64,000 nucleotides of DNA from assembly GCA_964607705.1 (NCBI GenBank), contig CAZSLI010000002.1:2791-66790 (forward strand), read 5' to 3'. Shown here piece after piece: positions 27,951-62,837 of the stretch. The position numbers were made by a program, and so were the translations under genes. Position 1 is the first letter of the stretch; each line of letters begins with the position of its first letter. A model generated the notes under the pieces. It searched no databases and was not told the DNA's origin. It saw only the letters and a list, made by a program, of their open reading frames with translations. This stretch comes from an uncultured Eubacteriales bacterium. Its GTDB lineage: Bacteria; Actinomycetota; Coriobacteriia; Anaerosomatales; PHET01.

Positions 27951-30104
27951 CTAGTTCAGCAGACCGCGCTTAGCCAGGTTCACGTGGCAGTTGGCGCAGA
28001 ACGTCGGCTGGTGGCAGTCGAAGCACGGATCGGCGCCGTTCTTCTTGACGATGTTCGGGTGGTAGCGAACCCACGGCTTGGTCGTCGAGGCACCCTCGTG
28101 GTGGCACGAGTTGCAGAAGTTCGGCTGGTGGCAGTTCGCGCAGGTCTTCTTATTGACCTTCTTCTCCGCGAACAGCTGAGCGTGCTGTCCACCGTTGTCC
28201 TTCGTGGGCTTCTCGCCTTCGGCAGGACCGAACCCGCTCGGGTGCGGCATCTCGAGCTTATGGCAGCTCGTGCAGAACTTGGCGTTCGGCAGCGTCGCGG
28301 CGTCACCCTTATGGCAGTACGTGCAGATCTCGCCGTCCTTGGTGTAGAGCTGGACGTGCTGCGCGTCCGTCGGGCTGAAGTCGCGAACGAACTTCTTCCC
28401 CTTGTGCGACGCAGGCACGACCTTGCGAGCGTTGTGACACTTAACGCAGTCGTCCTTGGTGTGGCACTTCTCGACACACGCACCTGCACCGTTCTTGTTC
28501 ACCGAACCGCCGTGAACCTTGAGCCACGGAGTAGAGGTCGACGATCCGACGTGGTGGCAGTTGCTGCACACTTCCTTGAACTGGTGGCAGTTCTGGCACG
28601 GCTTCGGATTCTTCTTGCTGCTCACGTGGTTCGTCTTGAACTCGGCCGGGTGAGGCATCTCCTGCTTGTGGCATGCCTTGCAGAACGGCGCGTTGGGGCC
28701 GCCCGGGCCGTGGCAGACCTCGCAGGACTCGATGGAGGCAAGGGCGCCGGTCGAGTGGCCCGCGGTCGGCTTCGCAGGAGACGAGCCATAGACGGTGAGC
28801 GCCTGTGGCGGCTTGCCGCGCGTCCAGGTCGAGCTCTTGTGGGAGTCGGGGAAGACCTTCTTGCCCGAGTGGCAATCCACGCAGAACTTGGTGGTGTGGC
28901 ACTGCGTCGTGCACGCCTTCACGCCACCCGCCTTGACGGCCTGCGGGTGCTGCTTGGTGGTCCAGTCCTCGGCCGGCTTGTATTCCCAGCCGCCCGCCTT
29001 CTCGCCGTGGTGGCACTTGTTGCAGAACTGCGGATCGGCCTTCGTGTGGCACATCTCGCACTTCTTCGGCTGTGCCTTCGAGATGACGGGGTGACCGTTC
29101 GGATCCTTGGGATCCTTGGGCTCCTTGAACTCGGCCGGGTGAGGCATAGGCATACCGTGGCAGTCGTTGCAGAACTGCTCGGTATGGCAGGTCGCGCAGT
29201 AGAAGACGCTCTCGACGCTCGGGAGCTCCTCGCCGATGCTCACAGTCTGCGAGCCGGCGTTCTCCTCCTGCTCCTTGATGACCTCGTTGACGTCCTTGGG
29301 AGCTTCGGCGGCTTCTTCGCCCTCAGCCGAAACAGACTCGGACGCGGCCTTGTCGGCCTCGGCCTTGAACTCCTTGGCCATCTCGGCGTGGTTCTTCGGC
29401 AGGAAGCCGGGCTGCTTGTGGCTCGGCGGAACGAGATCGAAGCCGGCCGGGTGACATGCGGCGCAGGCGCCCGGGGCAGCGGCCTCCTTCTCGAGGCTGT
29501 GACAGCGGAAGCAAGCGGTCATCGACATGAAGTTCGCGTGCTTCTCGGACTTCTCGCCGCCCTGCTTCTCCGGGTTGCTCAGTGAGGGCTCCCAGTCGCC
29601 GCTCTCGTTGTGAGCGATGCGGTTGTGGCAGACCGGACACGCGGCATTGATCTCCGAGTGAGCCTCGTGGTCGATCTTGATTCCCGGATTGGTGCTCACC
29701 TGCCTCGTGCTGAGGTTGTGGCACTGAACGCACTGCCTGCTGACCATCGTGAGCGACACTTCGCTCTCGGCGTTCAGCGGCAGCTCGTAGTTGTCGGTGA
29801 CCGTCATATACAACTCGCCCAAGGCCTCAGCCTTGTGCAGGATGAAGATGACCGGGTTGGCACCCACAGGCATGTGGCACGCCATGCAGCTGATCTCTGA
29901 GTGAGATGACCGCTGATAGGCGGTGATCGTGTCGTCCTGCACCTTGTGGCACCCCTCGGCGCAGAACCAACGAGTCGAAGTCACCCCCAGCGCAACGATC
30001 ATGACGGCGGCCAGCACCAAGACTGCAACACCAGTCCAGATGATGTACCTCGGCCGCCGAGCCGGATCTTTGAATCCGGCCAGTGAGATCTTGGCCATAT
30101 GCAT
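27951..30104 (-). CDS. membrane-anchored 24-haem c-type cytochrome (NapC/NirT/NrfH-like N-terminus fused to a triplicated hexahaem module)
   Basis: 717 aa with one N-terminal TM helix. I count 21 CxxCH and 3 CxxxCH motifs. The first about 170 aa (..FCAEGCH..SCMACH..CVQCH..CPVCHNRIAH) look NapC/NrfH-like. The second ATG (30098) has better RBS spacing. Confidence 0.9.
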   Translation of the reverse strand: MHMAKISLAGFKDPARRPRYIIWTGVAVLVLAAVMIVALGVTSTRWFCAEGCHKVQDDTITAYQRSSHSEISCMACHMPVGANPVIFILHKAEALGELYMTVTDNYELPLNAESEVSLTMVSRQCVQCHNLSTRQVSTNPGIKIDHEAHSEINAACPVCHNRIAHNESGDWEPSLSNPEKQGGEKSEKHANFMSMTACFRCHSLEKEAAAPGACAACHPAGFDLVPPSHKQPGFLPKNHAEMAKEFKAEADKAASESVSAEGEEAAEAPKDVNEVIKEQEENAGSQTVSIGEELPSVESVFYCATCHTEQFCNDCHGMPMPHPAEFKEPKDPKDPNGHPVISKAQPKKCEMCHTKADPQFCNKCHHGEKAGGWEYKPAEDWTTKQHPQAVKAGGVKACTTQCHTTKFCVDCHSGKKVFPDSHKSSTWTRGKPPQALTVYGSSPAKPTAGHSTGALASIESCEVCHGPGGPNAPFCKACHKQEMPHPAEFKTNHVSSKKNPKPCQNCHQFKEVCSNCHHVGSSTSTPWLKVHGGSVNKNGAGACVEKCHTKDDCVKCHNARKVVPASHKGKKFVRDFSPTDAQHVQLYTKDGEICTYCHKGDAATLPNAKFCTSCHKLEMPHPSGFGPAEGEKPTKDNGGQHAQLFAEKKVNKKTCANCHQPNFCNSCHHEGASTTKPWVRYHPNIVKKNGADPCFDCHQPTFCANCHVNLAKRGLLN
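27954..29207 (-). repeat. three tandem coding repeats (hexahaem modules, about aa 300-455, 456-590, 591-717)
   Basis: Each copy has three paired motifs. Pair A is CxxCH..FCxxCH followed by (E)MPHP(A/S)(E/G)F. Pair B is CxxCH..(F/V)CxxCHH(G/E/V). Pair C is C(x3 or x2)CH..(F/D)CxxCH. The MPHPAEFK / MPHPAEFK / MPHPSGF landmarks recur at aa 320, 483 and 619. Confidence 0.8.
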
Positions 30105-30736: not shown

Positions 30737-31894
30737 CTAGCGCACCAAGGTGTCGGCCAGGCGGTTGAGCTCCGTGATGACGGCCTGGATCTGCCGAGAC
30801 GACTCGGCCGACTGTGTGGAGACCTGCGCCATCTCGCGCATGGACACGACCACCTGGTCGGATGCCGTGCGCTGCTGCTGGGTGGCGATGGAGATCTGCT
30901 TTGCCGAGTCGGTCGTCTCTTCGACCTGCGAGACGATCCGGTCGAGGGCGTCGGCCGTCCGACGTGCGAGCGCCTTGCCCTCGTCCACCTTCTTCTGCGC
31001 CTTCTCGGTCGACATGACGAGGGAGCTCGCGCTCGACTGGATCTCTCGGACGACGCGACCGATCTCAGAGGTCGACTCGGTGACCGAGTCGGCGAGCTTG
31101 CGGATCTCCTCGGCGACGACGGCGAAACCCTTGCCCGCCTCACCGGCGCGCGCAGCCTCGATGGCCGCGTTCAGTGCGAGGATCTTGGTCTGCTCGGCGA
31201 TGTCGTCGATGATGACGAGCACTCGCCCGATCTCCTGGCTGCGCTCGCCGAGCTGGAGGATCCGGTCGGACGCGGCCTGCGTCGTCTCACGTATCTCGTC
31301 GATGCCGGTGGCAGTGTCTGCGACCGACTGCATGCCCTCCTCGGCGCTCGCGAGAGTGCGCTCGGCGATGGTGGCGACGGCCTGCGAGTTGTCGGCGATC
31401 TGCTTCGAGGTCTGGGCGAGCTCCTCGAGCGTGGCGGATGTCTCGGTGACTGCGGCTGCCTGCTGGGCGGCCCCCGATGCCTGCTGCTCGGTAGCCGCGA
31501 GCACTTCAGTCGTCAGGCTGCGCACGTCGTTGTTGACGGCCTTCGCCTGGTTGAGCATGCCGGTGACGTCGCCGAAGAGCCTGAGGACCTCATCCTGCAG
31601 GTCGTCGCAGTCTCCACGAGAGTCGACCGCGATCCCCATGCGCTCATGAGCTTGGGTGAGGACGCCGACGAACATGGACTCGCCCACCCGTGCAGCGACG
31701 ATAGCGCACGCCACTCCGAGACCCGCACCTGCAACAAGGCACAGCGCCCAGAAGACGATCCATGAGGTGGTGCTTTGCGCATCGACGAAGAAACTCGCCA
31801 CGAGGGGGAAGGCGATACCCACGATGACTCCGGCGCCGCCCATGTAAAGAACCAGCTTGCGCCGAGTCTTGCCCCTACCGCGTTGCTGCGCCAC
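30737..31894 (-). CDS. methyl-accepting chemotaxis protein with two TM helices and no sizeable sensor domain
   Basis: Conserved MA signalling hairpin ([35 protein letters not shown]). Two TM helices are separated by about 8 residues. I place the start at GTG 31894 after GAGGGG. The track ORF extends to 31984. Confidence 0.85.
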
Positions 31895-32070
31895 GTGCCC
31901 CTCATTTCCCCTGCCGACCGTCCAGCACATAGTAGCAGCGTGATGGCAGCACGGCAGCGACGGCGTTCCACTGCTTGGATTCATCGGTGCGCACCCGTTG
32001 CCAAACGATACCCCATGGGGTATATTCCGACAGCGAACGATGCGGCGGACACCAGGACGGCAGGAGGCCC

Positions 32071-32271
32071 ATGTCAGTCAAGATCGAGAACACGAGATGC
32101 GACCGCTCCCCCGGCTGCCCCGCTCGTCGGGCGTGCCCGCGAGGGGCTATCATTCCGATAGCCGGAGGGGCGTATCCTGGAGCCAACGGGTACACGGTTA
32201 TCGAAGACAAATGCACCGGGTGTGGCGTGTGCGCGCGCGTATGCGCGGGTGGCGCCGTCAATCTTCAATAG
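32071..32271 (+). CDS. small ferredoxin-like 4Fe-4S protein (66 aa)
   Basis: The inner ATG follows [17 protein letters not shown] (CxxCxxCxxxC) plus an atypical N-terminal [14 protein letters not shown] cysteine set. Confidence 0.7.
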
Positions 32272-32280
32272 GAGGAACCG

Positions 32281-32625
32281 ATGGCTCTCCCCGTGATAGT
32301 CGAGGTATACGACATCCCCCAGGCCACCGAGTGTTTCTCGGGAGGTTGAGGCCCTTCATGGTCTCCGGAGGAGATCACAGCGATCGTCCGCGCAGAGATC
32401 GAGCGCCGCTACGGCGACGATGCGCAGATCGCCTACCTCAATCTGGATGAGGAAACGGTACGCCACGAGCACGCCGAGATCGTCGCTCAGATAGAGACGC
32501 GCGGCCTGATCTATCCCGTCACCGTCGTCGACGGCGTGCCGCTCTACGATGGTGCGGTAAGTTACCCCGCCATCATGCGAGCGGTACAGAACAAGCTCGC
32601 CGAGATGGAATCCGCAGAAGCCTAG
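32281..32625 (+). CDS. candidate selenoprotein: ArsD/YuzD-like thioredoxin-fold protein with in-frame UGA (114 codons, U at codon 23)
   Basis: ATG 6 nt after AGGAGG. The frame stays GC3-rich on both sides of the TGA at 32347-32349. It reads MALPVIVEVYDIPQATECFSGG-U-GPSWSPEEITAIVRAEIERRYGDDAQIAYLNLDEE...GLIYPVTVVDGVPLYDGAVSYPAIMRAVQNKLAEMESAEA. No usable start codon follows the TGA. The ORF track misses this gene. Confidence 0.5.
32359..32377 (+). other. hairpin 10 nt downstream of the in-frame UGA (candidate bacterial SECIS, the selenocysteine insertion element)
   Basis: TGGTCTC-CGGAG-GAGATCA, a 7-bp stem (one G-U pair) with a G-rich 5-nt apical loop starting 19 nt after the U of UGA. The position and the loop G residues fit bacterial SECIS expectations. 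The stem is short. Confidence 0.35.
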
Positions 32626-32642: not shown

Positions 32643-33788
32643 ATGAACACAGTCAGCCTCGCGCGATGCGACACGTATCACCCCGATGAAGTGAATCGAG
32701 CACTTGACGCCGCCCTCTCCCCACTCGGGGGGATGGCGGCGTTCGTATCTCCCGGCCAAAGCGTACTCATCAAGGTCAACCTGCTGTCCCGAGCGCTTCC
32801 GGAGCGCGCCGTCATGACGCACCCGGATGTCGTGCGCGGGATCATCCGAGCGGTTCGGGCAGCCGGGGGCGTCCCTCGCGTGGGCGACAGCCCCGGTGGC
32901 CCCAACACTGCCGGACAGTGGCGACGCATCGTCCACGACAGCGGCATAGCCGAGGTCTGTGCCGACGAGGGATGCGAGCTCCTGCTGCTCGACGATGAAT
33001 GCACCCGTGTGACGAGCCCTTCGGGCGGCCTGTACGGTTCATTCACCATCGGGAAGGCGGTCGCGGACGCCGACGTCCTCATCACGGTTCCGAAGTTCAA
33101 GACGCACGGCTTCATGATGTTCACTGGCGCGGTCAAGAACCTCTTCGGCTGCATTCCGGGACTTGAGAAGGCCCAGTACCACCTCAAGGTGCCGGACCGG
33201 GACGACTTCGCGGACATGTTGGTCGACCTCATGCTTGCTTGCCGACCGGCTCTCGCCATCATGGACGCCGTGGTCGGCATGGAGGGAGAGGGGCCCGCTG
33301 GTGGGGTTCCTCGGCAGGTAGGCGCGTTGATCGCTTCGGCCGACTGTGTCGCGCTGGACGTGGTCGCCTCGGCCATGGCCGGCCTCGAGCCGCTCGAGGT
33401 GTACACCAACCGCGCAGCGGCCCGCCGAGGAATCGGACCGTCGTCAGTCGACGAAGTCGACGTGGTGGGCGCGGACTGGCGCTCGCTCGCTCCCGACGGT
33501 TTCGCACTTCCGGCGCGCGACCTCACGGCGCGCATGCCCGCATGGCTGGCGCCCCGGCTTCGCGGCTGGACGACCGCGCGGCCCGTCTTGGAGCGAGCGC
33601 AGGACTGTACGCGATGCGGTACGTGTGGAAAGGTGTGCCCGGTGGAGGCGATCGTCGTCGATGCCAAGGGGCCACACTTCGACCGCGAGAAATGCATCCG
33701 GTGCTACTGCTGCCAGGAGCTCTGTCCGCCGCAGGCTATCGGCCTCACGGTGCCACCGCTCGCGCGACTGCTCTCGAAGCGACGCTGA
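32643..33788 (+). CDS. DUF362-domain protein with C-terminal 2x[4Fe-4S] ferredoxin domain
   Basis: 381 aa. VLIKVNLLS...KFKTHGFMMFTGAVKNLFGCIPG..KAQYH (DUF362), then CTRCGTCGKVCP and CIRCYCCQELCP. Confidence 0.85.
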   Translation: MNTVSLARCDTYHPDEVNRALDAALSPLGGMAAFVSPGQSVLIKVNLLSRALPERAVMTHPDVVRGIIRAVRAAGGVPRVGDSPGGPNTAGQWRRIVHDSGIAEVCADEGCELLLLDDECTRVTSPSGGLYGSFTIGKAVADADVLITVPKFKTHGFMMFTGAVKNLFGCIPGLEKAQYHLKVPDRDDFADMLVDLMLACRPALAIMDAVVGMEGEGPAGGVPRQVGALIASADCVALDVVASAMAGLEPLEVYTNRAAARRGIGPSSVDEVDVVGADWRSLAPDGFALPARDLTARMPAWLAPRLRGWTTARPVLERAQDCTRCGTCGKVCPVEAIVVDAKGPHFDREKCIRCYCCQELCPPQAIGLTVPPLARLLSKRR

Positions 33789-41157: not shown

Positions 41158-42651
41158 TCAGCCTCGGGCAGCCTCCACCCGGTTCTTTCCCGCTCGCTTC
41201 GCACGATACATCGCCGCGTCGGCCGCTTCCACTAGCTTGAGCGCGGTCCGAGCGTCGGGCGGGTAGGCGGCGACACCCATGGAGACCGTCCGGTTGACCT
41301 TCGCCCCGTCGGTGGGCGCGAAGTCGATGTTCTCGATGTCGGAACGGATGCGTTCGGCGACCGCCGAAGCACCGTCGCGGTCGGTCTCGGGAAGCACCAG
41401 CACGAACTCCTCGCCGCCGTAGCGCGCCGCGATGTCCATCTCTCTCAGGTTCCGCCGTATGACCGAGGAGACAGCCTTGAGCACGTCATCGCCTCGGGGA
41501 TGGCCGTAGGAGTCGTTGAACTCCTTGAAGTCGTCGATGTCGAGCATGATGAGAGCCATGGGGTGCCCGAAGCGCGCCGAGCGCTTGAACTCCTCCTCGA
41601 GCCGCTGCTGGAAGTGACCGTGGTTGTACAGCTCGGTGAGCCGGTCGGTCACAGAGAGCCTCTCGAGCTCGCCGTGCAGAAGGGCGTTCTGAAGCGACAG
41701 CGAGGCCTGATTGCCCAGCACGTGCAAGCGCTCCATCTCGGCGGCCGAAAGCTCACGATGCGTGGCCGACGCCATGACCATGACTCCGAACACGTTCTCG
41801 CCGGCCCTCAGCGGTACCGCCGCCTGGCTGACGATCTCCTTAGCATCTTGGAGCCAGGCCGCCGAGGACGACCCGGACTGCACGAGTGCCTCCTGGACGG
41901 CTCCTTCACGGAACGCGTAGCCGAGGACCGTCTCGGAAACCGGTACGACCAGCCGAAACGCGCTCTCGGCCCGCCCCTGTGACGCGCGCAGGTGCAGTGT
42001 CCAGTCTTCGCGGTTGAACAGGTAGACGCAGCTGATCTCCGCGCCGAGGATGCCGTTGCAGCCGTCGACGATGAGCGAGCAGACGTCGTCGACCGACGTG
42101 TAGCTGGTGAGCGCCTTGAAGAACTCGTGCGTGAAGAAGATCTCGGCGAGTCGGCTCTCGAGTTCTTCATTCGCCCGCTCGAGCGCCTCCTTGCTCGAAG
42201 AGAGACGGCGCTCGTGGCTGCGGATCTTGTCGTAGGCCACCTGCAGCTCGACGAAGAGCCTCTCCTGCTCCTCGCCGCGCTTCTTGGCGACCATGAGGTC
42301 CCACAGCAGTTCGGAACCCGCGCCGCCGATGAGCCCGACCTGTACCGGACGCTGCGCCTCGAGCTCCGCTCGGATACGCGCGTCGCCGCTCATGTCGACG
42401 ATGAGGTCGAGGTCGGGGACCTGGAAGACCTCGGTAAGTTCCGACGTGCAGAATATCCCGAGGTCAGCGGCCAGACGTGCCGCCGGGCCACCGACACTTG
42501 CGGCACACAAGGCACTCACGGCGACCGTCTCGGACTCGCTCATGAGCCTGAGGATCATCGCGGCGCGCTCTCCCCCTCCGACGATCGCCAGCGTCGTACG
42601 CCGGGCGGTCCTGTCGGAAAGCGATATGCCTATGCCGTCGGTCAATGTCAC
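41158..42651 (-). CDS. diguanylate cyclase: Rossmann-like N-domain, coiled coil, GAF, GGDEF
   Basis: GGEEF active site with an RxxD I-site five residues upstream (REMDIAARYGGEEF), a GAF region and N-terminal LAIVGGGERAAMILRLM. I place the start at GTG 42651. The TTG at 42690 would overlap cheD. Confidence 0.88.
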   Translation of the reverse strand: MTLTDGIGISLSDRTARRTTLAIVGGGERAAMILRLMSESETVAVSALCAASVGGPAARLAADLGIFCTSELTEVFQVPDLDLIVDMSGDARIRAELEAQRPVQVGLIGGAGSELLWDLMVAKKRGEEQERLFVELQVAYDKIRSHERRLSSSKEALERANEELESRLAEIFFTHEFFKALTSYTSVDDVCSLIVDGCNGILGAEISCVYLFNREDWTLHLRASQGRAESAFRLVVPVSETVLGYAFREGAVQEALVQSGSSSAAWLQDAKEIVSQAAVPLRAGENVFGVMVMASATHRELSAAEMERLHVLGNQASLSLQNALLHGELERLSVTDRLTELYNHGHFQQRLEEEFKRSARFGHPMALIMLDIDDFKEFNDSYGHPRGDDVLKAVSSVIRRNLREMDIAARYGGEEFVLVLPETDRDGASAVAERIRSDIENIDFAPTDGAKVNRTVSMGVAAYPPDARTALKLVEAADAAMYRAKRAGKNRVEAARG

Positions 42652-42670
42652 TATCCGGCCCCCATGGCCC

Positions 42671-43186
42671 CTAAAGCCTACGCACGCCAAACTGATAGCT
42701 CTTCACGAGCATCTCACCCGTCTGCAGAACCAATTCCACCGTGCGGGCGTGCGCCTCACCTGTATCTTCGGCTTCCAGCACCACTGACATGAGTGCGAGC
42801 TGCCGCTTGCACTCGGCGACGTTGCGCCCGCCGATCGCCGCGACGTTGGTGTCACCGCGGAACATCGCAGCCCCACCGGCGAGCTTTGCCCTCATGCGGC
42901 GCTTCAGGCAGCCCTCGGCGAGAAGCATCTCGACGAGCCGAGGGATGGCGTAGTCGGCGAACCGGCCGCCGGTCGCTCCCGAGCTTGCGCCGCCCGGTGT
43001 CGGGAGCATCACATGCGCCAGGCCACCGGCATGAGCGTAGGGGTCGTAGATGGCGACGCCGACGCACGAGCCGAGCGCGGGCGTGAACAGGCGCTTCGGC
43101 GCAGTCGCGACCACGAGTTCGCCGATGCCGACTTCTATGAGGTCGGGGTCGCTCTCGAAGTCGAGGATGTCGTGTCCGCCGGCCAT
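42671..43186 (-). CDS. cheD: chemoreceptor glutamine deamidase CheD
   Basis: 171 aa. ALGSCVGVAIYDP...GGLAHVMLP is the CheD signature. Confidence 0.9.
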   Translation of the reverse strand: MAGGHDILDFESDPDLIEVGIGELVVATAPKRLFTPALGSCVGVAIYDPYAHAGGLAHVMLPTPGGASSGATGGRFADYAIPRLVEMLLAEGCLKRRMRAKLAGGAAMFRGDTNVAAIGGRNVAECKRQLALMSVVLEAEDTGEAHARTVELVLQTGEMLVKSYQFGVRRL

Positions 43187-43189
43187 GGG

Positions 43190-43801
43190 CTACGAGACGC
43201 CGAGCCGACCCAGCAACACGGGTATCGAGTCGGTGGCTGGCACGAAGAACAGACCGGCCTCAACAGTCGCGCTCTCGTCGATGAATGCGGTCCGTACCAG
43301 GATCGCGTCCTCGGCAGCCGAACCCACCTCGGCGATCGCAGTCTCCATCACCGCTCCGGCCATGTCGAACGCCATCGCCGCGTTGGATGGCAGGACGTCG
43401 AGATCGGCCATCCGCGCGATCGCCGCAAGATAGGCCGAGATGAGGATCGACGCGGCGTGTCGAAGCAGGGCCTCTTCCTCGTGGCCGATGGAGACGGTCT
43501 GAGGGGTCTCGTGGCCGTGAAGGAGGTCGACCAGCGCGAGCGCGGCCTCCCTCCTGGCGACGAACAGCATCCCGCCCGACAGATCGCCGAGGAGACGCGA
43601 GTAGACGGCCAGCACGAGCAGCTCCGGTCCACCCAACGCCCTCGGCACGTCGGCCAAGTGTATGACCTCGATCTCGGGCACCTTGAGGTTCACGGGCCGG
43701 TCGACGAGCTGCGAGAGCGCGGTGGCTGCGTGTCCTGCGCCGATACCCCCGATCTCGCGGAGCGCATCCAGCTGCAACGGTGTGAGGCTGTCGAGCCGCA
43801 T
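43190..43801 (-). CDS. cheC: CheY-P phosphatase CheC
   Basis: 203 aa. LDALREIGGIGAGHAATALSQL start and a second pseudo-repeat (AFDMAGAVMETAIAEV). Located between cheA and cheD as in Bacillus-type systems. Confidence 0.85.
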   Translation of the reverse strand: MRLDSLTPLQLDALREIGGIGAGHAATALSQLVDRPVNLKVPEIEVIHLADVPRALGGPELLVLAVYSRLLGDLSGGMLFVARREAALALVDLLHGHETPQTVSIGHEEEALLRHAASILISAYLAAIARMADLDVLPSNAAMAFDMAGAVMETAIAEVGSAAEDAILVRTAFIDESATVEAGLFFVPATDSIPVLLGRLGVS

Positions 43802-43802
43802 G

Positions 43803-45782
43803 TCACCCCTCCTGGTACGTGAACAGCGACCGAGGATCGAGGATGAGGATCACACGGCCATCGCCGAGGATCGTCGCGCCCGAGAAGCCACGCGTATCCC
43901 TGAACAGGCGTGACAGCGGCTTGACCACGATCTCCGTCCTGCCTGCGAACGCGTCGACGTGCAACGCCTTGAGCTCCCCCGCCGACTGGACAAGCACGAC
44001 GTTGGAGCCGGGCTCTGGCATGCGATTGCTGTCGCCGCCGAAGAGGGCGACGTCGAGCCGGAACATGGGGACCACGACGCCGTCTCTGAGTATCAGGACG
44101 GGAGCTCCGTCCACGGTGTCGAGGTTGAGGTCCTCGGCGGCTATGACTTCTTCGACCGAGGAAAGCGGGAGCGCGAAGTCCTGCCCGCGCGATGTCACCA
44201 GCAAGGCGTGGACGATGGCGAGCGTGAGCGGCAGCCTGAGAATGAACGACGTACCCACGCCGATGGACGAGTGGATCTCGACGGTGCCGCCGAGATGCTC
44301 GATCTTGCCCTTCACGACGTCCATACCCACGCCGCGACCCGAGACCTTCGTAGCGGTCTCCGCTGTCGAGAAGCCCGGGACGCAGGTGATCATCAGGATG
44401 TCATCGTTGCCGTACTCGTGCCGGGCGGACTCTGCGACGATGCCGCGCTCCACCGCCTTGGCCCACACTCGTTCGGGATCGATGCCCTTGCCGTCATCGC
44501 TGACGGAGATTGCAACGTGATCCCGCTCGCGTGCGGCCGACAGCGTGATGCGCCCGACAGCCGCCTTGCCAGTTGCTGCACGAGCGCTAGGCGACTCCAC
44601 GCCATGATCGATGCTGTTGCGAAGCAGGTGCACAAGGGGGTCGCCGATCTCGTCCAGCACGGTTCGATCGAGCTCGATATCGAGTCCCTGCATGTCGAAA
44701 TCGATGTCCTTGCCGAGCTCGATGGCGAGGTCGCGAACCATGCGAGGGAACCGGTTGAAGATGTTGCCGACCGGCACCATCCTGGTCTGCATGACCTCGT
44801 ACTGGAGATCGGTCGAGATCCTCTGGAGGTCACCTATGGTCTCGGCGAGCGCCGGATCGACTCGAGCGTCGGAGAGCTCCTCGAGGCGCGAGCGGAGGAT
44901 CACGAGTTCCCCGACCAGGTCCACGAGAGTGTCGAGGTGTCCGATCGAGATGCGCACGGTCTGGGTCTCAGAGAGTTTCGGTACGCTCCTGATCTGGGCG
45001 CTCGCTCGCGGCGACAGTTGGGCCGGTGCAGCCGGAGTCGCGCTCTGCCGAGGTGCCACGCTCTTCTCGACGACGGTCACTTGCTCGACTTCCGAGACGT
45101 GCTCGGCAGCCTCCCCTATTGCCGCGGGTGAAGCGTTGCTTGCGAGGATGACCTTGAACTCGCGCTCAAACTCCTCATCTTCGATCTCGCGACCGGAGGG
45201 AACCGTATCGACGACCCGGCCGATGTGGCTCAGGCGCTTGATCACCATATACGCACGAACAGCCTTGAGCACGCACGACTCTTCGAGCCTGACCGTGATG
45301 TCGTACTGGGCCGCTTCATCCGGCGTTGGACCGCCAGCCTGGTCAACCGGCTCATCGGCAGACTCGCCCGGTGCGGCGGGCGGTGCAGCCGACTGAGCTG
45401 CCACGCCCGCCGTCGCCGCCTCAAGAGCCGCGATGACGTCCGAGGGATCCACCGCAGAGCGGCCGTTGGACTCGTCATCTATAAGTTCGCGCACGACGTC
45501 GCTCGCGGCGAGCATCAGATCGATGACCGGCTGGTCGGGCTTGAGATCGCCCTTGCGGACCCGGTCCATCAGTCCTTCCATCTTGTGAGTGAGATCCGCT
45601 GTCCGCTCGTATCCCATGGCAGCAGCCATGCCCTTGAGCGAGTGCGCGCCACGGAACACGATCTCGACCGGAGCCAGGTACGTCGGGTCGCGCTCAAGAT
45701 CGAGCAAACCGTCGGTTATCTGCTGGAGGAAGTCCGCGCTCTCGGCGAGGAATACATCCCTGTAGGCATCCATGTCGGACAT
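43803..45782 (-). CDS. cheA: chemotaxis histidine kinase CheA
   Basis: 659 aa. HPt (FRGAHSLKGMAAAMG), dimerisation domain, HATPase (HLLRNSIDHG, DDGKGID, GRGVGMDVV) and a C-terminal CheW-like domain. Confidence 0.97.
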   Translation of the reverse strand: MSDMDAYRDVFLAESADFLQQITDGLLDLERDPTYLAPVEIVFRGAHSLKGMAAAMGYERTADLTHKMEGLMDRVRKGDLKPDQPVIDLMLAASDVVRELIDDESNGRSAVDPSDVIAALEAATAGVAAQSAAPPAAPGESADEPVDQAGGPTPDEAAQYDITVRLEESCVLKAVRAYMVIKRLSHIGRVVDTVPSGREIEDEEFEREFKVILASNASPAAIGEAAEHVSEVEQVTVVEKSVAPRQSATPAAPAQLSPRASAQIRSVPKLSETQTVRISIGHLDTLVDLVGELVILRSRLEELSDARVDPALAETIGDLQRISTDLQYEVMQTRMVPVGNIFNRFPRMVRDLAIELGKDIDFDMQGLDIELDRTVLDEIGDPLVHLLRNSIDHGVESPSARAATGKAAVGRITLSAARERDHVAISVSDDGKGIDPERVWAKAVERGIVAESARHEYGNDDILMITCVPGFSTAETATKVSGRGVGMDVVKGKIEHLGGTVEIHSSIGVGTSFILRLPLTLAIVHALLVTSRGQDFALPLSSVEEVIAAEDLNLDTVDGAPVLILRDGVVVPMFRLDVALFGGDSNRMPEPGSNVVLVQSAGELKALHVDAFAGRTEIVVKPLSRLFRDTRGFSGATILGDGRVILILDPRSLFTYQEG

Positions 45783-46879
45783 CAGTTGTACTCACCGCCC
45801 GAGCGCGCGCGGACGGCCCGGCGGATCTCGGCCGCCACGAGGCCTATGGGTACCTGCCGGTTGGTCGCGCCCGACCGAACCGTCGCCCCCGGCATGCCCC
45901 ACACGATGCTGGTCGGTTCGTCCTGAACGACGATGTCGCCGCCTGCCTTCTTGATGCTCAATGCTCCATCCGCACCATCAGAGCCCATGCCGGTGAGCAC
46001 CACGCCAACGGAGTGACCGCCGAAGATCGATGCGACACTCTTCATGAGGTAGTCACCAGCCGGCTTGACGCCGTGGAGGGAGGGCCCATCGGTCATCCGT
46101 AACACCGGTTGGCCCTCGCTGCGCTCCACAACGAGATGGCTGCCATGGGGAGCGATGTACGCGTGACCCGGCTCAAGGTGCATGCCTTCCTCGGCGATGC
46201 TGACCTTGACCTCACTCACACTATCGAGCCTGCGAGCGAGTGAGTCGGCGAACCCCGCGGGAAGATGCTGGACCACGATGTAGGTCGCAGGCATCGAGGC
46301 CTGCAAGCCCGAGAAGACGCGTTCCAAAGCAGGAGGGCCGCCGGTCGACGATGCGATCGCCACACACGCGGAGATCCGCGTCGCTGTGATGGTGGGCGGC
46401 GCTACGGCGATGGCGGGCTCTGCTGTCTTGAACAGCTCGGCGGCATTGGCCTGGACGACGAGTGCCGCCCTCTCAGGGGTGATCCGGTATGCCGTCTTGA
46501 TCTTCTTGAGGAGGACCTCGGTCAGTTCGGTGATCGAGGTCGCAACCCCGGCACTGGGCTTGGCGAGGAAGTCCACCGCTCCCAAGGACAATGCCTTGTA
46601 GGTGGTCTCCGGGTCGTCGAGGGACGAGAGCATGACCACGCGCGCCGGCGAGTTCTTGCGGATATGCGGGAGCGCCTCGAGCCCATTGAGCTCAGGCATT
46701 TCGATGTCGAGCGTGATGACGTCGGGTTCGAGGTCCCGCGCCTTCTCGATGGCCTCGACGCCATCTCGCGCGCTGCCGATCACCTGGACGCGCGGGTCCA
46801 TCGCAAGTGCCCTCGTAAGCATTTGGCGGATGAGCGCGGAGTCGTCGACTACGAGGACCCGGATCGACGTGGGCGGCAT
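45782..46879 (-). CDS. cheB: chemotaxis response regulator protein-glutamate methylesterase CheB
   Basis: Receiver domain (IRVLVVDDS...DVITLDIEMP) plus esterase domain (ASSTGGPPAL, LTGMGSDG). Start at the inner ATG 46879. Confidence 0.93.
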   Translation of the reverse strand: MPPTSIRVLVVDDSALIRQMLTRALAMDPRVQVIGSARDGVEAIEKARDLEPDVITLDIEMPELNGLEALPHIRKNSPARVVMLSSLDDPETTYKALSLGAVDFLAKPSAGVATSITELTEVLLKKIKTAYRITPERAALVVQANAAELFKTAEPAIAVAPPTITATRISACVAIASSTGGPPALERVFSGLQASMPATYIVVQHLPAGFADSLARRLDSVSEVKVSIAEEGMHLEPGHAYIAPHGSHLVVERSEGQPVLRMTDGPSLHGVKPAGDYLMKSVASIFGGHSVGVVLTGMGSDGADGALSIKKAGGDIVVQDEPTSIVWGMPGATVRSGATNRQVPIGLVAAEIRRAVRARSGGEYN

Positions 46880-46890
46880 GATCTCGTTCC

Positions 46891-47262
46891 TCAGCCGACC
46901 GAAGCTTGCAGGCACTTCTTGACGGTCTCGAGCACCTTCGTCGGCTGGAAAGGCTTTACGAGAAAGTCGAGCGCGCCCGCCTCGAGCGCCTCAACGATCA
47001 TCTTCTGCTGTCCCATCGCGCTCACCATAAGCACGCGGGCTGCGGGGTCTACGCGCTTGATCTCTCGAAGCGCCTCGATTCCATCGAGCTCGGGCATCGT
47101 GATGTCCATAGTCACCAGGTCCGGCCGGACCTCACCGTACTTCTCGATAGCGTCTCGGCCATTGACGGCTTCATGGATCGCGTAGCCCTCCCGGGCGAGT
47201 ATGTCTCGGATCATCATCCTCATGAACGCTGCATCATCGACGACCAGAATGGTCTTAGACAT
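46891..47262 (-). CDS. cheY: chemotaxis response regulator CheY
   Basis: The inner ATG gives MSKTILVVDDAAFMRMMI...DLVTMDITMPELDG...VSAMGQ...K, a single receiver domain of 123 aa. Confidence 0.93.
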   Translation of the reverse strand: MSKTILVVDDAAFMRMMIRDILAREGYAIHEAVNGRDAIEKYGEVRPDLVTMDITMPELDGIEALREIKRVDPAARVLMVSAMGQQKMIVEALEAGALDFLVKPFQPTKVLETVKKCLQASVG

Positions 47263-47746
47263 CCGCGGGCACCTCTTCGTCGTCGGCTCCGGGGACCGCC
47301 GAGGCATACTCGGAACGGGGAACCGCCTCATCCAGGTTGAGCAGTATCACAAGCTTGCCGTCCCGCTCGACCACACCGGAGAAGGCGCGGGCGGTCTCAG
47401 GCGCCAAGACGCCGTCGGGGACAGGGTTGACGGACTCGGGTTCGAACTCGGTGACCTCGGTAGCGGAATCCACAGCGACACCCACCGCGCCAGCAGCGCC
47501 CTCTGCGACAACGATGCGCGAGAAGGTCCCCGGCTTGAATGGGATCCCCTTGAAGCGCATGTGGAGATCGACCACCGGAATGACGCGGCCACGGAGGTTG
47601 ATCACCCCCAGCACCGAATGCGGGGCCCGGGGGACCGGCGTCGCCTCCTCGAAGCGGATGATGCTGTTGACGGCGGCGACCGGCAGGCCGTATTCCTCAT
47701 CGGCCAGATGGAAGACCACGTAGCTGTTCGCCAGAGGTTTGCTCAT
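47255..47746 (-). CDS. cheW: chemotaxis coupling protein CheW
   Basis: 163 aa. FHLADEEYGLPVAAVNSIIRF...VLGVINLRGRVIPVVDL is the CheW pattern. Confidence 0.92.
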   Translation of the reverse strand: MSKPLANSYVVFHLADEEYGLPVAAVNSIIRFEEATPVPRAPHSVLGVINLRGRVIPVVDLHMRFKGIPFKPGTFSRIVVAEGAAGAVGVAVDSATEVTEFEPESVNPVPDGVLAPETARAFSGVVERDGKLVILLNLDEAVPRSEYASAVPGADDEEVPADV

Positions 47747-47754
47747 CGCGTGCT

Positions 47755-49071
47755 CTAGTCGACCCGGAACCGGTGAACGGTCTCGTCGAGACGCTGCGCC
47801 ATGTCGGCGAGATCCTGGGCCGACGCGGTGATCTCCTGCATACAGGCCGTCTGCTCTTCGGCAGCGGCGGCGGTCTCTTCGGCGGAAGCGGCGTTCTGCT
47901 CGACCACCGCAGCGATCTCGTGCATCGCCCGGTCGACATCCGTCGTGCGTCGCGCCTGCTCGCTCATCGACTTGGCGATCTCGTCGGCCAGCTGGCTCGT
48001 GCGGGAAACGGCGTCACTGATCGCGCGGAGCGCCTTGCCGCTGCGGCCGACGACCTCGCTGCCGACCTCGACCTCGCGCGTACCGATCTCCATGTATCGC
48101 ACGGCCTTGGCTGTCTCCGCCTGAACGTCTTGGATGAGCTCTCCGATCCGCTCGGCCGCCTGCCCAGAGCCCTCGGCCAACTTGCGGACCTCCTCGGCGA
48201 CGACCGAGAACCCGCGGCCCGACTCGCCGGCACGCGCGGCCTCGATCGCTGCGTTGAGCGACAGGAGGTTGGTCTGGTCGGCGATGTTGGTGATGACGTC
48301 GACGATGCCGCCGATCTGCTCGCTTCGCTTGCCGAGGACTTCGACCGAGGATGCGAGCGTCTCGATGGCCTGCTGGACCTCGGCGATCTTCACGATCGCC
48401 TGCTCGGTCGCCTCCTCGCCAGCGCGAGCGACCTGTGCGGCCTCGAGACTCGTGGTCGCCGCCTCGGTCGCCTTTGACGCGACCTGCTCGGTTGTGGAGG
48501 TCATCAGGGCGACAGCGCGGCTGGTATCGTCGACCTTGCGCGACTGCAGCTCGGCACCATGCGCTATCTGCTGCACCGACGAAGAGATCTCGATCGTCGA
48601 TGAGTTGATCTCCTCGGAAGACGCCGAGAGTTCGGATGCGGCCGCTGACACCGAATCGGCCGAGCGTCGCACCTGCGACGCGATGCCGGAGAGCGACTCG
48701 ATGAGCAGGTTGCATTCGCGAGCAAGCTCGCCGATCTCGTCATTGCGCTGGATCCGGGCGCGTACGCGCAGATCCCCCTCGCCGGCCTGGATCATCGTGC
48801 CGCCCAGGTCGCGAAGCGGACGGAGGATCCTGTCCTTGAACTGGATGCGCCACAGCCAGGTCCCGACGGGCGCCATGAGGAACATCGCGACCGCGCCCAC
48901 CGCCATGACCGGCGCCATCTCGGCCAACGAGAGGTCGAGGAAGTAGTAAGCGAAGATCGCCGTCAGAATCAGTCCGAACAAGACCGCCGGTCCGATCGCC
49001 ACCCAGGTGAGCAGCGTAAAGATGAAGGACAGCCCGCCTCTGACGGTGCTATCCCTGTGTTCCTGCGCCAT
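47755..49071 (-). CDS. methyl-accepting chemotaxis protein (2 TM, HAMP, MA domain)
   Basis: 438 aa. HAMP ([21 protein letters not shown]) and the conserved hairpin [35 protein letters not shown]. Very short extracytoplasmic loop. Confidence 0.92.
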
Positions 49072-49121
49072 CTGGCTCGTTCCCCTCCGCGGCCCTTCCG
49101 GGCAGCTGACGTCCCCCCGGC

Positions 49122-49970
49122 CTAGTAGCGGACCGGCTTGCGATAGATACGCTCTCTGCCATCTATCGGCTCAAAGCGCTCCGCGGCTTGAGGGCTCAAC
49201 TTCTCACTGCGCCCCAAGACGAGATAGCCTCCGCGCGCCAACGCTCCCCAAAACGTTTCGAGCGCTCGCGCCTGCTGCTCTCGATCGAAGTAGATGAACA
49301 CGTTGCGGCACATGATGAGATCGATCGATCGCTGTGGCGCCGGATCGAACAGGCTCGCTTCGCGGAACCGTACGATCTTGCGTACCGACGGGTCCATCTC
49401 GAACGCTTCGCGATTAACCGGCTGGGTGAATCGTACCTGATAACTGGCCGGGATGTGGCGCAGCCGCTGGTTGTCGAAGACGCCCAGCTCGGCCCTGCGC
49501 AGCGCCTCCCGGTCGAGGTCCGTCGCCAAGACTGACATCAGGTAGCGTGACTCGTCCTTCCCAACCGCGTCGAGCAGCATCATGGCGAGCGAATAGGGCT
49601 CTTCTCCGGTAGCACACGCCGCAGACCAAAGGCGGATCGTTCGACTTCGCCCCTCGGACTTCGACTCGAGCATGGGCCGCATGACATTACGCTTGATCGA
49701 GTCCCACACGACCTGGTCGCGGAAGAACTCGGTGACGTTGATCGTCAGCGTGTCCAAGAGGCGTTCGTACTCGTTCGGATCCGACTCTAGGACATCGGCG
49801 TACTGCCTGAACGAGTGCAGGTCGAGGGCGCGCAGCCGCGTGGTGATGCGCCGCTCCACGTACGCTCGACGATACAGCGACAAGTCGATGCCGCGTGCAT
49901 CGTTGACCTTGTCGATGAGTCGGTCGAGGCTGCCGCGATAGACTCCTGAGGAACCGCCCTCTTCCACGCG
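49122..49970 (-). CDS. cheR: chemotaxis protein methyltransferase CheR
   Basis: CheR N-domain ([16 protein letters not shown]) and SAM-MTase domain ([31 protein letters not shown]). I place the start at GTG 49970 after GGAGGGGGG. The track ORF extends to 50024. Confidence 0.88.
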
Positions 49971-50025
49971 CCCCCCTCCGACAGACACAACCGACCCCGC
50001 GTGTGAAGTGCTAGATATGCGCACC

Positions 50026-51194: not shown

Positions 51195-54100
51195 CTAGCG
51201 GACGTACACCGTGCGGAACGTCGAGTACGACGGCGCGTGAGCGGTGTCCGCGTGGTATGCCCGTATGATCCACTTGCCCGTGTAGGGCAGCGACACGTAG
51301 CCGTAGTAGCGGCTGTAGCTGCTGTAGTTCTTCACCTTCACGCTGATCGTCTTGCGCAACTTGGGCTTGCCGCTCTCATAGCGGTAGCACTGGAGCTTGA
51401 CTGCGTAGGTGCCCGAGGAGTGGCGCGGCTTCAGGTTGCCGTACGTGCTGAAGCGCACGTTGCGTCCGGTTCTTGACGGCGCGTACGGCGTCGAGAGATA
51501 GACCTTCGGAGTCACTGCGAACACCTGCGTCGCTGCCGCGGCCTCGAAATCGGCGTCCGCATCGGTCGTCAGGCGGTACGAGGTCTTCACGGTTGGCTTG
51601 ACCGTGAAAGACACCTTGCCGGCTGCATCGGTCTGGCGGCTGTCGACTCTCCGCCAGCTCCCGGACAGGTACTCAAGGAAGACGGTCTTGCCCGGCAACG
51701 CTCCACTCTCCACGGCGCTCCACGAACCGCTGATCGCCGCGCTGCCGCCGTACGCGATGACGCTCGCCGAAGAAGCGCCCGAGAGCTGCGTCGACTCCTT
51801 GGGGTCTACCGAGAGACGTGTGGCACGAGCGGACTCGTTCCCCGCACCGTCGTACGCCACGAACTCCACCTTCACGGGGCGATAGCCCGACCACGACACC
51901 TCGTCGGGCGTCCAACTGGTCTCCCAGCTGCCGTCCGGGTTCACGGTCACCGGGAGTCTGATGGGCTCAGGCTGCCAACCGGCGCCGCTCCAGTACATTG
52001 CGTCCCGGGTGATCGCTATGCTTGCCGCGTCGATTCCGGACCGTGAGTCTGATGCTGTCCCGGAGAGCGTGACGGTTGCCTCGCGCGTCAGCGGGAACGG
52101 CACGTTCGCTTGAGCGATAGTGGCGCTGGGCGCCGAGGTGTCGAGCACTATCGAGTCGGAGGCCGTGGCCCCCACGGTATGGCTTGCGTCAGACGAGAAC
52201 CGGAACGTCACCGTCCGCGTACCCTCGCCTGCGCCTAGTGACAGCGTAGCCGCCGAGGACCCGCCGTAAGGCATCCACTCGCTGGGCGCACCGCCGTCAA
52301 CCTGATAGCTCACCGAAGTCGCTCCGACCGCGGACACCGTCGCCGTCACCGTCTGCGAGCCGGTGTACCGATCTCCGCCGTTGAGAGCGATCTGCGCTGC
52401 GATCGGCACCGCCGAGACGACGCCGGGCGTGGTGACTGAGACGAGTCCGTAGCCGTCGGTCGCATGCGCCTCGAGGGTGACCATCTCGCCGGGGATGATC
52501 TGATCGGGCGTCAGCGTCCAATCGTAGTACCAGCTGGCCCCGCCCGTGACAGGGAGCCAGACCTCGGCCCCGTTGTTCCAGCCGCTCCCGTTCCAACAAC
52601 GACCGGAACTCCGCCTTATCAGCACCTCGACGCCTTGAACCGTGCCTCCCGTGTCTGCGGCTGTACCCGAGATACGTGTGGTGTTTGCCGACAGCCTGAA
52701 TCCCGCCGCAGGTGAACTGATCGCGACGCTGGGGACCGACGTGTGCAGGACGATGTCGTCACTGGCCGAGGCCTCTACGCTGGCCCCTCCGGTGGACGAG
52801 AAGCGGAACCAGACGCGCTTCACGCCGTCACCGGCAGGCAGCGTGATACCGGTCGCCGAGGCGTACGGCTCCCACGCCGAGAAGGCGCTGCCGTCGAAGC
52901 TCATCTGCATGTGGGTGGGCGTGCCGGTGGTCGCCACGGACGCGATGATGCCGCGCGTCGTGGTGTAGGCCGCACCGGCTTGCAGTGAGACGGCGGCGGC
53001 GATGCCGACGCTCGAGTCCCTCTGGGCACTCGTCCCTTGCAGCCCCACGCCATCGGTCGCCCTGGCCGTCACCGAGACGATGTAGCCCGCGAGCTGATCC
53101 GTCGGCGGGACCGCCCAGTCGTACGACCAGCCGATGCCGGTCATCGGTAGCCAGAAGTCACCGGGCGTCCAGGCGAGGCCATTCCAACTACGCCCGTCCG
53201 AGCGGCGGATGCGCAGCTCCGTGGACGATATGATGCCGTCGACATCTGACGACGTACCGGATACGTGGACGAGCGGTGTGTTGAGCGAGAAGCCGGAGGC
53301 GGGAGTGGCCAACGCCACTTCGGGAATGCTGGTATGCAGAAGGATCGAGTCCGAGGCCGTAGCCTCGACACTGGCCCCGCCGGTGGACGAGAGCTCGAAA
53401 ATGACCGTCTTGGTGCCGTCGCCCGACGGGAGTGACACGGCGGCACTCGGAGCGTAGTCCTGCCAGCCCGTGAAGGTTGCTCCGCTGTCCACGCTCCACC
53501 GCATCTTGTTGGGAGTGCCCGTGGTGGCGAGGGATGCGGTGACTCCGGTGCTCGTCGTGTACGCCGCCCCGCCATTCAACGAGACGGCCGCCGCCACCGA
53601 GACGCTCGATGAGACCGTCGCCGCCGAGCCGACGAGTCCAACCATGTCTGTCGCGCGCGCCGAGATGGAGATGATCTGACCGGCGGCGAGTTGTCCTGCT
53701 GAAGGAGCCCAGCGGTACGACCAGTTGCCCGTTCCGGTCGCCGGGATCCAGGATGTTGCACTGCTCCATCCCGAGCCGGTCCAGGTGTAGCCGTCCGACC
53801 GTGTGATGAGCACTTCGACCGAGGTCAGGCTGCCTCCAGCGTCTGCCGCCGTCCCCGTGATGGTCACCGGCACACTCGTGAGCGAGAACCCGTTCGCGGG
53901 CTGTGCGATCGCGACGGAAGGCACGCTCGTGTGCAGCAGGATGGAGTCGCTTGCCGTCGCATCAGTCGTACCGTCGCCTGCCGATGAGAACTCGAACGTG
54001 ACGGTCTTCACGCCATCACCCGCGGTCAAAGTGACCGCCTTGCTTGCCGAGTACGGCTCCCAAGCGTTGTAGCCCGTGCCGTTGTTCCAGCGCATGCGAT

Positions 54101-61314: not shown

Positions 61315-61460
61315 GCAGTGCACTCCTTACCGGTGGGGCGCGCGAGACCTGCCGGGGTCCCTTGGAGGACGCGTCCTCTGTCCAGCTCGAATTATAGCGG
61401 GATATGGGGTTTTGCACCTGCTGTTTGAGAACTCCGTGCCATCTGGAACGGGTTCACGAA

Positions 61461-62817: not shown

Positions 62818-62837
62818 TCAGTTCACCCCCTTATCGG

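Follow-up and report, generated by a model that had tools for sequence, protein, structure and literature searches.

We analysed a 64,000-nt stretch of contig CAZSLI010000002.1 (hereafter the window), from an uncultured bacterium that GTDB places in the Anaerosomatales (Coriobacteriia), with a focus on a short plus-strand gene at 32281–32625 that very probably encodes a selenoprotein. Its open reading frame (ORF) runs from an ATG at 32281 to a TAG at 32623–32625 and is broken by a single in-frame TGA (32347–32349), exactly as an earlier annotation made from the letters alone (the sequence-only reading) had described it. Read through, it comprises 114 codons including one for selenocysteine (Sec, U), a gene model backed by translation, Pfam, orthologues and a structural model from AlphaFold2 (AF2). 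The Shine-Dalgarno sequence AGGAGG (32270–32275, +), read directly in the sequence, is present ahead of the ATG as stated, with a spacer of 5 nt, and shares bases with the TAG that ends the upstream gene. GC content at third codon positions (GC3) is indeed high on either side of the TGA (0.73 before, 0.76 after). The long start-free run behind the TGA is likewise real, but ends at a GTG after 62 codons, not after about 70 as proposed. The read-through product has the form MALPVIVEVYDIPQATECFSGG-U-GPSWSPEEITAIV...YPVTVVDGVPLYDGAVSYPAIMRAV..., with ...ECFSGG-U-GPSWSPEEITAIVR around the Sec. Its putative C-x4-U centre consists of Cys18 (TGT, 32332–32334, +) and Sec23 (U23), encoded by the TGA (+), and Pro79 (32515–32517, +) takes the position of the thioredoxin-fold cis-proline that precedes strand beta-3.

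The selenoprotein gene is the middle one of a likely three-gene operon. Upstream lies a gene for a small ferredoxin-like protein (32072–32271, +; 66 residues; Fer4 and related Pfam families) with seven Cys in the motif C-x5-C-x5-CP ... C-x2-C-x2-C-x3-C. Beginning 17 nt downstream is a gene that combines a DUF362 domain with two [4Fe-4S] ferredoxin domains (32643–33788, +), with Pfam matches to DUF362, at 5.6e-60, and to Fer4 families; it is probably co-transcribed with the selenoprotein gene but is an optional partner. A consensus scan returned one sigma-70-like promoter candidate (TTGCCA-17-TATATT, 31998–32026, +; 10/12 matches; 0.3 such sites expected), a possible operon start upstream of the ferredoxin gene. 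Elsewhere in the window, TGA serves as an ordinary stop. It ends 22 of the 57 predicted genes (TAG, 28; TAA, 7), so TGA is not reassigned genome-wide, and the two sites that had been cited to this effect, 7833–7835 and 59914–59916, are both true minus-strand stops, each within a GTGA stop/start overlap.

We compared the gene with its orthologues in 80 loci (one genome per GTDB species), in locus L081 and in the window itself (n = 82). The species loci all stem from metagenome-assembled genomes and, bar a few, are labelled Coriobacteriia, Anaerosomatales or Actinomycetota; the nearest to the window gene, L001, shares 78% protein identity with it. TGA occupies the Sec position in 82/82 orthologues, never TAA, TAG or a sense codon, in the context C-x-[S/G]-G-G-U-G-P-[S/T/A]-W-S-P-E-E-I-T-A. 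The partner residue Cys18 is Cys in 81 of the 82 and nearly invariant family-wide. Residues upstream of the Sec (V-14, D-12, P-10, C-5 and G-2) are conserved with synonymous variation, V-14, P-10 and G-2 each using four codons and C-5 either TGC or TGT. Such conserved residues with varying codons on both sides of the TGA indicate protein-coding selection in one frame. The TGA is also found in 47 divergent homologues, namely L083, L084, L086, L087 and 43 metagenome loci (GC 38–68%). Its identity in 129 independent assemblies excludes decay and rules out sequencing error, the alternative that the sequence-only reading itself had raised.

Two minor observations concern the DNA around the TGA. The Gly codon preceding it (32344–32346 in the window) is GGT in 63 and GGA in 17 orthologues, i.e. 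one of the two in 80/82, in contrast to GGC, by far the commonest Gly codon in the window genome; through this bias, codon context may act on Sec decoding or termination. L077 and L079 carry a frameshift about 150–200 nt past the TGA with the N-terminal part, TGA and hairpin (see below) intact. Both are long-read nanopore 'MFD' assemblies, and their frameshifts are probably assembly indel errors rather than signs of pseudogenes.

A search of 5.8 billion proteins, with U replaced by C in the query, returned 271 relatives, nearly all of them 72–86 residues long, with matches confined to the last two thirds of the query. These short relatives begin at assorted, non-homologous internal codons downstream of the TGA. 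The single full-length match, P0001, carries W at the Sec position in the protein and TGA in its DNA. P0001 then served as the query against 1.84 billion cluster representatives in an exhaustive HMMER search, which recovered only 32 clusters. Cys occupies the Sec column in seven distant full-length homologues (P0121, P0128, P0137, P0141, P0143, P0150 and P0151), exemplified by P0121 (CCSSGCCGPAWSSEEIT) and P0137 (C-x4-CGP), and the DNA of P0121, P0137 and P0143 (loci L082, L085 and L088) revealed genuine TGC/TGT codons. Thus, Cys-bearing homologues that align at the TGA position, for which the sequence-only reading had called, do exist. Four further HMMER members display 'GGWGP', and in the DNA of all four (genomes of 41–61% GC) the W is a TGA. 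In addition, we scanned metagenomes with a pattern made up of the TGA and part of the hairpin and written to leave out the main clade. Of the 44 loci retrieved, 43 code for family members, which belong to several subfamilies and span 38–68% GC. When 37 diverse members were aligned, invariance was confined to the Sec/Cys column; the upstream Cys, the G-P after the Sec, one Glu and the Pro before beta-3 are nearly invariant.

The gene had been called unannotated, and public databases bear this out. JGI and ENA gene calls record W at the Sec position (P0001/L081, P0127/L083, P0132/L084, P0134/L086 and P0138/L087), and the NCBI/GenBank versions are post-TGA fragments named 'DUF1462 family protein' with PF07315 assigned. 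Hence all public copies are mis-annotated, either as a truncated 'DUF1462 family protein' devoid of the active site or with Trp in place of Sec. A tblastn scan for Sec/Cys pairs, run over all related DNA and the window in search of a second selenoprotein, gave the present family as the only clean pair; the other matches were antisense or off-frame ORF artefacts of high-GC DNA.

Downstream of the TGA, a hairpin at 32359–32377 (+; UGGUCUCC-GGA-GGAGAUCA) had been noted to lie at the distance of a bacterial Sec insertion sequence (SECIS). It begins nine nt past the UGA, leaves 17 nt between UGA and loop, and folds at -9.3 kcal/mol; its stem can be counted as 8 bp closing a 3-nt loop or as 7 bp closing the 5-nt loop CGGAG. 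In the core stem, 32360–32365 pairs with 32371–32376 around the loop CGGAG (32366–32370), which contains an invariant GG (32367–32368). The published model of bacterial SECIS elements (bSECIS) specifies a loop of 3–9 nt, a stem of 4–16 bp, a G within the first two loop positions, a UGA-to-loop distance of 16–37 nt and a minimum free energy of <= -7.5 kcal/mol (PMC13188914 Fig. 2), and the hairpin falls within all of these limits. No curated Rfam family matches the element. An extension of the lower stem was rejected from it, being paired at most positions in just 21–42 of the 82 orthologues.

The codons that make up the hairpin (+4 to +9 relative to the Sec) are frozen among the orthologues, their codon entropy being zero or close to it: TCT, ATC and two GAG codons are each found in 82/82 and CCG in 78/82, with the four variants differing at the loop base only. 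In contrast, the equally invariant G+1, P+2, T+10 and A+11 use four codons each (entropy about 1.7 bits). Together with the TGA in 82/82, this pattern lies far outside what chance would produce. TCT accounts for only 5.8% of the Ser codons in the window. Divergent members also provide covariation. In a 10-sequence alignment the helix was 95% paired, compared to 36–61% with partners slid, and included two compensatory pairs; its covariation score was reached by 0/500 shuffles. Among 37 distinct divergent sequences, the six core pairs were paired throughout, and pairs 14–30 and 15–29 (37/37) each occurred as G-C, A-U and G-U. An A at position 14 was seen only with a U at position 30 (Fisher p = 1.9e-7, uncorrected for phylogeny), and a change of the 5′ codon from Trp to Gln or Lys accompanied a synonymous 3′ switch from AUC to AUU, even at 60–66% GC. 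Loop base 21 was G in 37/37, though left free in the search pattern. Positions 16–18, 22, 25–28 and 31–32 were fixed by this pattern, and their invariance is therefore uninformative.

In Cys forms the constraint is looser: the hairpin is gone from L085, and weakened relics of it persist in L082 and L088 (-4.8 and -5.1 kcal/mol), the one of L088 reading AUCUCU-AUGGA-GGAGAU at the SECIS position. The S-x-E-E-I-T peptide motif is absent in several Cys forms, and W-S-x-E-E-I-T is encoded by the hairpin itself. Its relaxation or absence in these forms argues that much of the apparent protein conservation after the Sec is imposed by the RNA, and suggests the S-x-E-E-I-T motif to be largely a product of the SECIS. 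Here, then, RNA may shape protein, with S-x-E-E-I-T existing largely since its codons form the hairpin.

With respect to protein family, DUF1462 (PF07315) is the sole Pfam entry to exceed its curated cut-off (31.6 bits, cut-off 25). Across the 37 members, DUF1462 matches 29 and ArsD 15 at E <= 0.01. The NCBIfam library produced only ArsD, at 18.9 bits (cut-off 90), and no selenoprotein model. We built an AF2 model on the natural Cys form P0121, which is 58% identical to the window protein. The model adopts a beta-alpha-beta-alpha-beta-beta-alpha thioredoxin fold (predicted local distance difference test, pLDDT, 90.3; predicted template-modelling score, pTM, 0.82). In it, the Sec position, followed by G-P, lies just ahead of the N-terminus of helix 1, where Sec would occupy the place of the nucleophilic Cys of the thioredoxin C-G-P-C. 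Pro79, nearly invariant in the family alignment and located before beta-3 in the model, would adopt the cis conformation. Foldseek against the PDB placed 1XG8 at the top (E = 3.1e-5, template-modelling score (TM) 0.58/0.64), followed by thioredoxins and the ArsD structures 3KTB and 3KGK, all at TM 0.5–0.64. A profile-to-PDB comparison also ranked 1XG8 highest (E = 7.5e-8), aligning the Sec with the second Cys of the CxxC of that protein, S. aureus SA0798.

SA0798 represents the DUF1462/YuzD family, named 'disulfide oxidoreductase YuzD' by JGI, with which the selenoprotein shares the thioredoxin fold, the size and the conserved Pro before beta-3. The centres differ, however, being C-x2-C in SA0798 and C-x4-U followed by G-P in the selenoprotein (C-x3-U in some divergent members), and the Pfam match is confined to selenoprotein residues 25–102, i.e. 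past the Sec. The C-x4-U in place of C-x2-C sets the selenoprotein apart as a distinct subfamily within DUF1462/YuzD. Its relation to thioredoxin proper is similarly mixed. With Sec at the start of helix 1 and G-P right after it, the active site is reminiscent of W-C-G-P-C, a gene for the thioredoxin reductase TrxB adjoins in several lineages, thioredoxins fill the Foldseek list, and there are weak profile matches to the archaeal structures 1NHO and 1FO5. Yet residue +3 of the selenoprotein is S, A or T instead of Cys, the partner Cys stands at -5, and neither Pfam Thioredoxin nor Thioredoxin_3 matches at E <= 1. Sec-containing thioredoxin-like selenoproteins (Trx UxxC; Thioredoxin_3 'Sec.1/Sec.2') have been listed before (PMC13188914 Table 1).

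A CxxCxxCxxxC ferredoxin-like ORF, a few of them partial, lies directly upstream in about 79 of the 82 loci, its stop about 10 nt before the ATG. The Cys forms L082 and L085 likewise have a ferredoxin gene upstream, as do the divergent Sec forms L089, L106 and L113, where it is of the standard 8-Cys type. DUF362, present directly downstream in only 32 of the 72 orthologous loci with enough flank (and after the Cys form L082), is thereby ruled out as an obligate partner. In the divergent lineages, a bona fide TrxB (TIGR01292, 362 bits, cut-off 343) follows directly on the same strand in 7 loci and is found within 4.5 kb in 11/43. Other recurrent same-strand neighbours there are Thioredoxin_3, a CoA-disulfide-reductase-like flavoprotein, OsmC, CoA_binding_2 and DUF302.

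Further neighbours are restricted to smaller sets of loci. A gene for an FmdB-type zinc ribbon (Zn_ribbon_8, Cys form) is directly upstream in L083, L089, L101 and L112; the FmdB family is itself listed among the selenoproteins of some organisms (PMC13188914 Table 1). In the W-S-L-E-E-I-T subfamily, a ThiI/MnmA-type PP-loop (SGGLDS) gene with an NFACT-R_2 RNA-binding domain is directly upstream on the same strand at 11 loci (L090, L097, L099, L103, L110, L114, L119, L123, L124, L126 and L132), which hints at a tie to tRNA thiolation or sulfur/selenium transfer in this lineage. The operon is also flanked by minus-strand genes that keep their order throughout the clade and look functionally unrelated to it. 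On one side these encode a multihaem cytochrome, YjgF and a methyl-accepting chemotaxis protein (MCP); those on the opposite side encode a DnaJ-like protein, PBP1A and EamA. The divergently oriented MCP gene next to the operon (30737–31984, -), the second such gene in the window, is syntenic in 61 related genomes.

We favour, with moderate confidence, an interpretation drawn from this comparative evidence in which the Sec-UGA would be decoded via the SECIS, and the product would be a thioredoxin-fold selenol/thiol reductase fed by ferredoxin here and by TrxB elsewhere. On this account, the ribosome would read the UGA at 32347–32349 as Sec because the downstream GG-loop hairpin (32359–32377) serves SelB and Sec-tRNA as a bacterial SECIS. 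The partner Cys five residues upstream of the Sec (C-x4-U) would most likely allow a reversible selenenylsulfide, i.e. a selenol-thiol couple, by which the selenoprotein could act as a small disulfide or other chalcogenide reductase. Electrons would most likely come from the 7-Cys ferredoxin encoded just upstream in the same operon in Anaerosomatales-like Coriobacteriia, and from the thioredoxin reductase encoded just downstream in several other lineages. Both the selenenylsulfide chemistry and these electron donors are what we infer from fold, motif and neighbourhood, on which the small selenol/thiol reductase mechanism rests; in this form we consider it reasonably probable.

Functionally, the arrangement could be likened to the ferredoxin:thioredoxin reductase (FTR)/thioredoxin system: an Fe-S protein is co-encoded with a thioredoxin-fold dithiol-type protein, so that, by analogy, a two-electron chalcogenide couple could be supplied by one-electron carriers. 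The FTR-thioredoxin complex 2PUK was among the Foldseek matches, via its thioredoxin chain. The upstream protein differs in being a small bacterial-type ferredoxin and not an FTR catalytic subunit, and no FTR homology was found in Pfam or NCBIfam. A bolder version of the analogy, which we regard as speculative and unlikely, would make the selenoprotein and the 7-Cys ferredoxin a new two-component, ferredoxin-driven selenol/thiol reductase whose C-x4-U communicates with, or completes, the incomplete cluster site. Such a system would be a functional analogue of FTR built from unrelated parts and, if it exists, would give strict anaerobes such as the Anaerosomatales an NAD(P)H-independent route of disulfide, and possibly metalloid, reduction.

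Several points weigh against our interpretation. Aragorn and Rfam did not find a tRNA-Sec in the 64-kb window, Pfam did not find SelA, SelB or SelD among the 20 window proteins of suitable size, and 1.15 Mb of related flanking DNA yielded no match to tRNA-Sec (Aragorn) or SelD (tblastn with E. coli SelD as the query); these scans covered the window and flanks. The core stem of the hairpin is invariant in the main clade, so that the covariation comes from divergent members only, which were retrieved by a pattern fixing part of the hairpin and evaluated by statistics that ignore phylogeny. Absence of the hairpin from Cys forms fails as a clean control, since it is lost in one of the three and kept in weakened form in two. 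With regard to function, the evidence for a redox role consists of fold, motif and neighbourhood; the AF2 model is at its least confident in the active-site loop (pLDDT about 71); and the clade to which the window belongs lacks TrxB as a neighbour. The lack of demonstrated Sec machinery in the window and the 1.15 Mb of flanks, together with public annotation in which the C-terminal part stands as a 'DUF1462 family protein' of its own, would fit a TGA that is not Sec at all: a true stop in a split or dead gene, or behind a 22-residue leader followed by a separate C-terminal protein; a sequencing error; or a codon read through by a standard tRNA. We deem this very improbable. Error and decay are excluded by the 129 assemblies with an identical TGA; the 22 residues ahead of it are conserved as protein, with synonymous variation; no in-frame start follows for 62 codons; and the annotated fragments begin at non-homologous codons and would be left without strand beta-1 and the active site. 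Moreover, Cys homologues and a covarying SECIS are specific predictions of Sec decoding. Indeed, the proposal that TGA 32347–32349 encodes Sec in a thioredoxin-fold C-x4-U-GPS protein was supported by every comparative test run. From the conserved UGA, the Sec/Cys pairs, the covarying SECIS, the fold and the gene partnerships, actual Sec insertion would follow, and we consider it highly probable that 32281–32625 is a genuine selenoprotein gene.

Given a genuine selenoprotein, its role could still differ from that of a reductase. The sequence-only reading had called the protein 'ArsD-like', and as a resemblance of loop and fold this holds. Both are thioredoxin folds without a classical CxxC, ArsD (structures 3KTB, 3MWH and 3KGK) is a structural match at TM 0.5–0.6, with 3KTB and 3KGK among the Foldseek matches, and 15 of the 37 members have sub-threshold matches to Pfam ArsD. 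Profile alignment to 3KTB also reproduced the claimed correspondence, in which U falls on ArsD Cys18 and the Cys before it on Cys13, the C13-x4-C18-G-(P/T) of ArsD matching C18-x4-U23-G-P(-S) residue for residue. An ArsD-like metallochaperone, whose Cys/Sec loop would capture a soft metalloid or metal (As(III), Sb(III), Hg(II) or the like) for delivery to a partner, is thus conceivable, and a distant Cys form with a tandem CGPGGCGPEGCGPG loop (P0143, L088:80-3129) is located at the end of an arsR-arsD-arsA operon. However, L088 has its own bona fide ArsD, and there is no arsA or arsD near any of about 125 Sec-form genes, the window included; the recurrent neighbours are TrxB, thioredoxin-like and CoA-disulfide-reductase (CoADR)-like proteins, OsmC and ferredoxins. 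As a family assignment, 'ArsD-like' fails, with scores below threshold in both Pfam (PF06953, 20.4 bits, threshold 27) and NCBIfam (NF033727, 18.9, threshold 90), and the formal family is DUF1462/YuzD. The third ligand of the three-Cys site of ArsD is missing, the equivalent of Cys12 (position -6) being A, D, S or E with those of Cys13 and Cys18 present. The selenoprotein also has Sec in place of Cys and no C-terminal Cys-rich tail. We therefore judge a metallochaperone role to be unlikely. The ferredoxin raises another prospect, namely that the selenoprotein serves Fe-S chemistry, supplying a missing fourth cluster ligand or acting in Fe-S or persulfide/perselenide transfer, and is not a general reductant. 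The main-clade ferredoxin has three Cys in its first cluster motif (C-x5-C-x5-CP) and four in the second; the pairing of the two genes is near-obligate; DUF362-Fer4 is often next downstream; and the PP-loop gene directly upstream in the 11-locus subfamily is sulfurtransferase-like. This support is purely circumstantial, though, and divergent lineages have either a standard 8-Cys ferredoxin (L106) or none, with TrxB neighbours that indicate ordinary dithiol/selenol-thiol chemistry. We hence consider an Fe-S role unlikely, and retain the small selenol/thiol reductase as the preferred reading of the gene.

Within the databases and literature searched, this is an uncatalogued selenoprotein family. 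A 2026 review of 119 prokaryotic selenoprotein families (PMC13188914) lists neither DUF1462 nor YuzD nor ArsD, and a C-x4-U-GP motif is likewise missing from its table; no model of NCBIfam release 20 matches any family member above threshold; and full-text literature searches returned no paper tying DUF1462, PF07315, YuzD, ArsD or CxxxxU to Sec. The paper describing cultured Anaerosomatales makes no mention of selenoproteins or glycine reductase. The family is nevertheless of a well-known kind, that of thioredoxin-fold selenoproteins whose SECIS lies in the coding region, and does not represent a new type of system. The bacterial selenoproteome would gain a widespread family, with representatives in 80 or more Coriobacteriia species and several lineages unrelated to them. 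The orphan DUF1462/YuzD would gain a first functional lead, namely a redox centre of Sec/Cys type partnered by TrxB and ferredoxin. The ArsD-type C-x4-C loop would likewise be seen to exist in a Sec version. In practical terms, the UGA plus hairpin pattern is a usable search key for re-annotating family members.

Other genes of the window are mentioned for completeness. Two high-GC3 ORFs of 469 and 366 residues (59914–61323, - and 12112–13212, -) have no Pfam match at E <= 1e-8; the former is adjoined by ORFs of 999 and 1628 residues (56918–59917 and 51195–56081). A chemotaxis cluster (41158–50024, -) encodes CheA, CheB, an MCP and CheR along with a GGDEF/GAF protein. A 717-residue protein rich in CxxCH motifs is encoded at 27951–30104 (-). 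At the right edge of the window (61528–63845, -), a NiFe hydrogenase large subunit, of which the C-terminal part is present (Pfam NiFeSe_Hases), adjoins a multihaem cytochrome (Paired_CXXCH_1), and as the NiFeSe_Hases model matches to its end, this is a Cys-type hydrogenase C-terminus. Multihaem cytochromes, a NiFe hydrogenase and 66–68% GC are reported in the description of cultured Anaerosomatales, traits that fit the window, and the hydrogenase and multihaem genes agree with the hydrogen- and iron-respiring lifestyle of this order.

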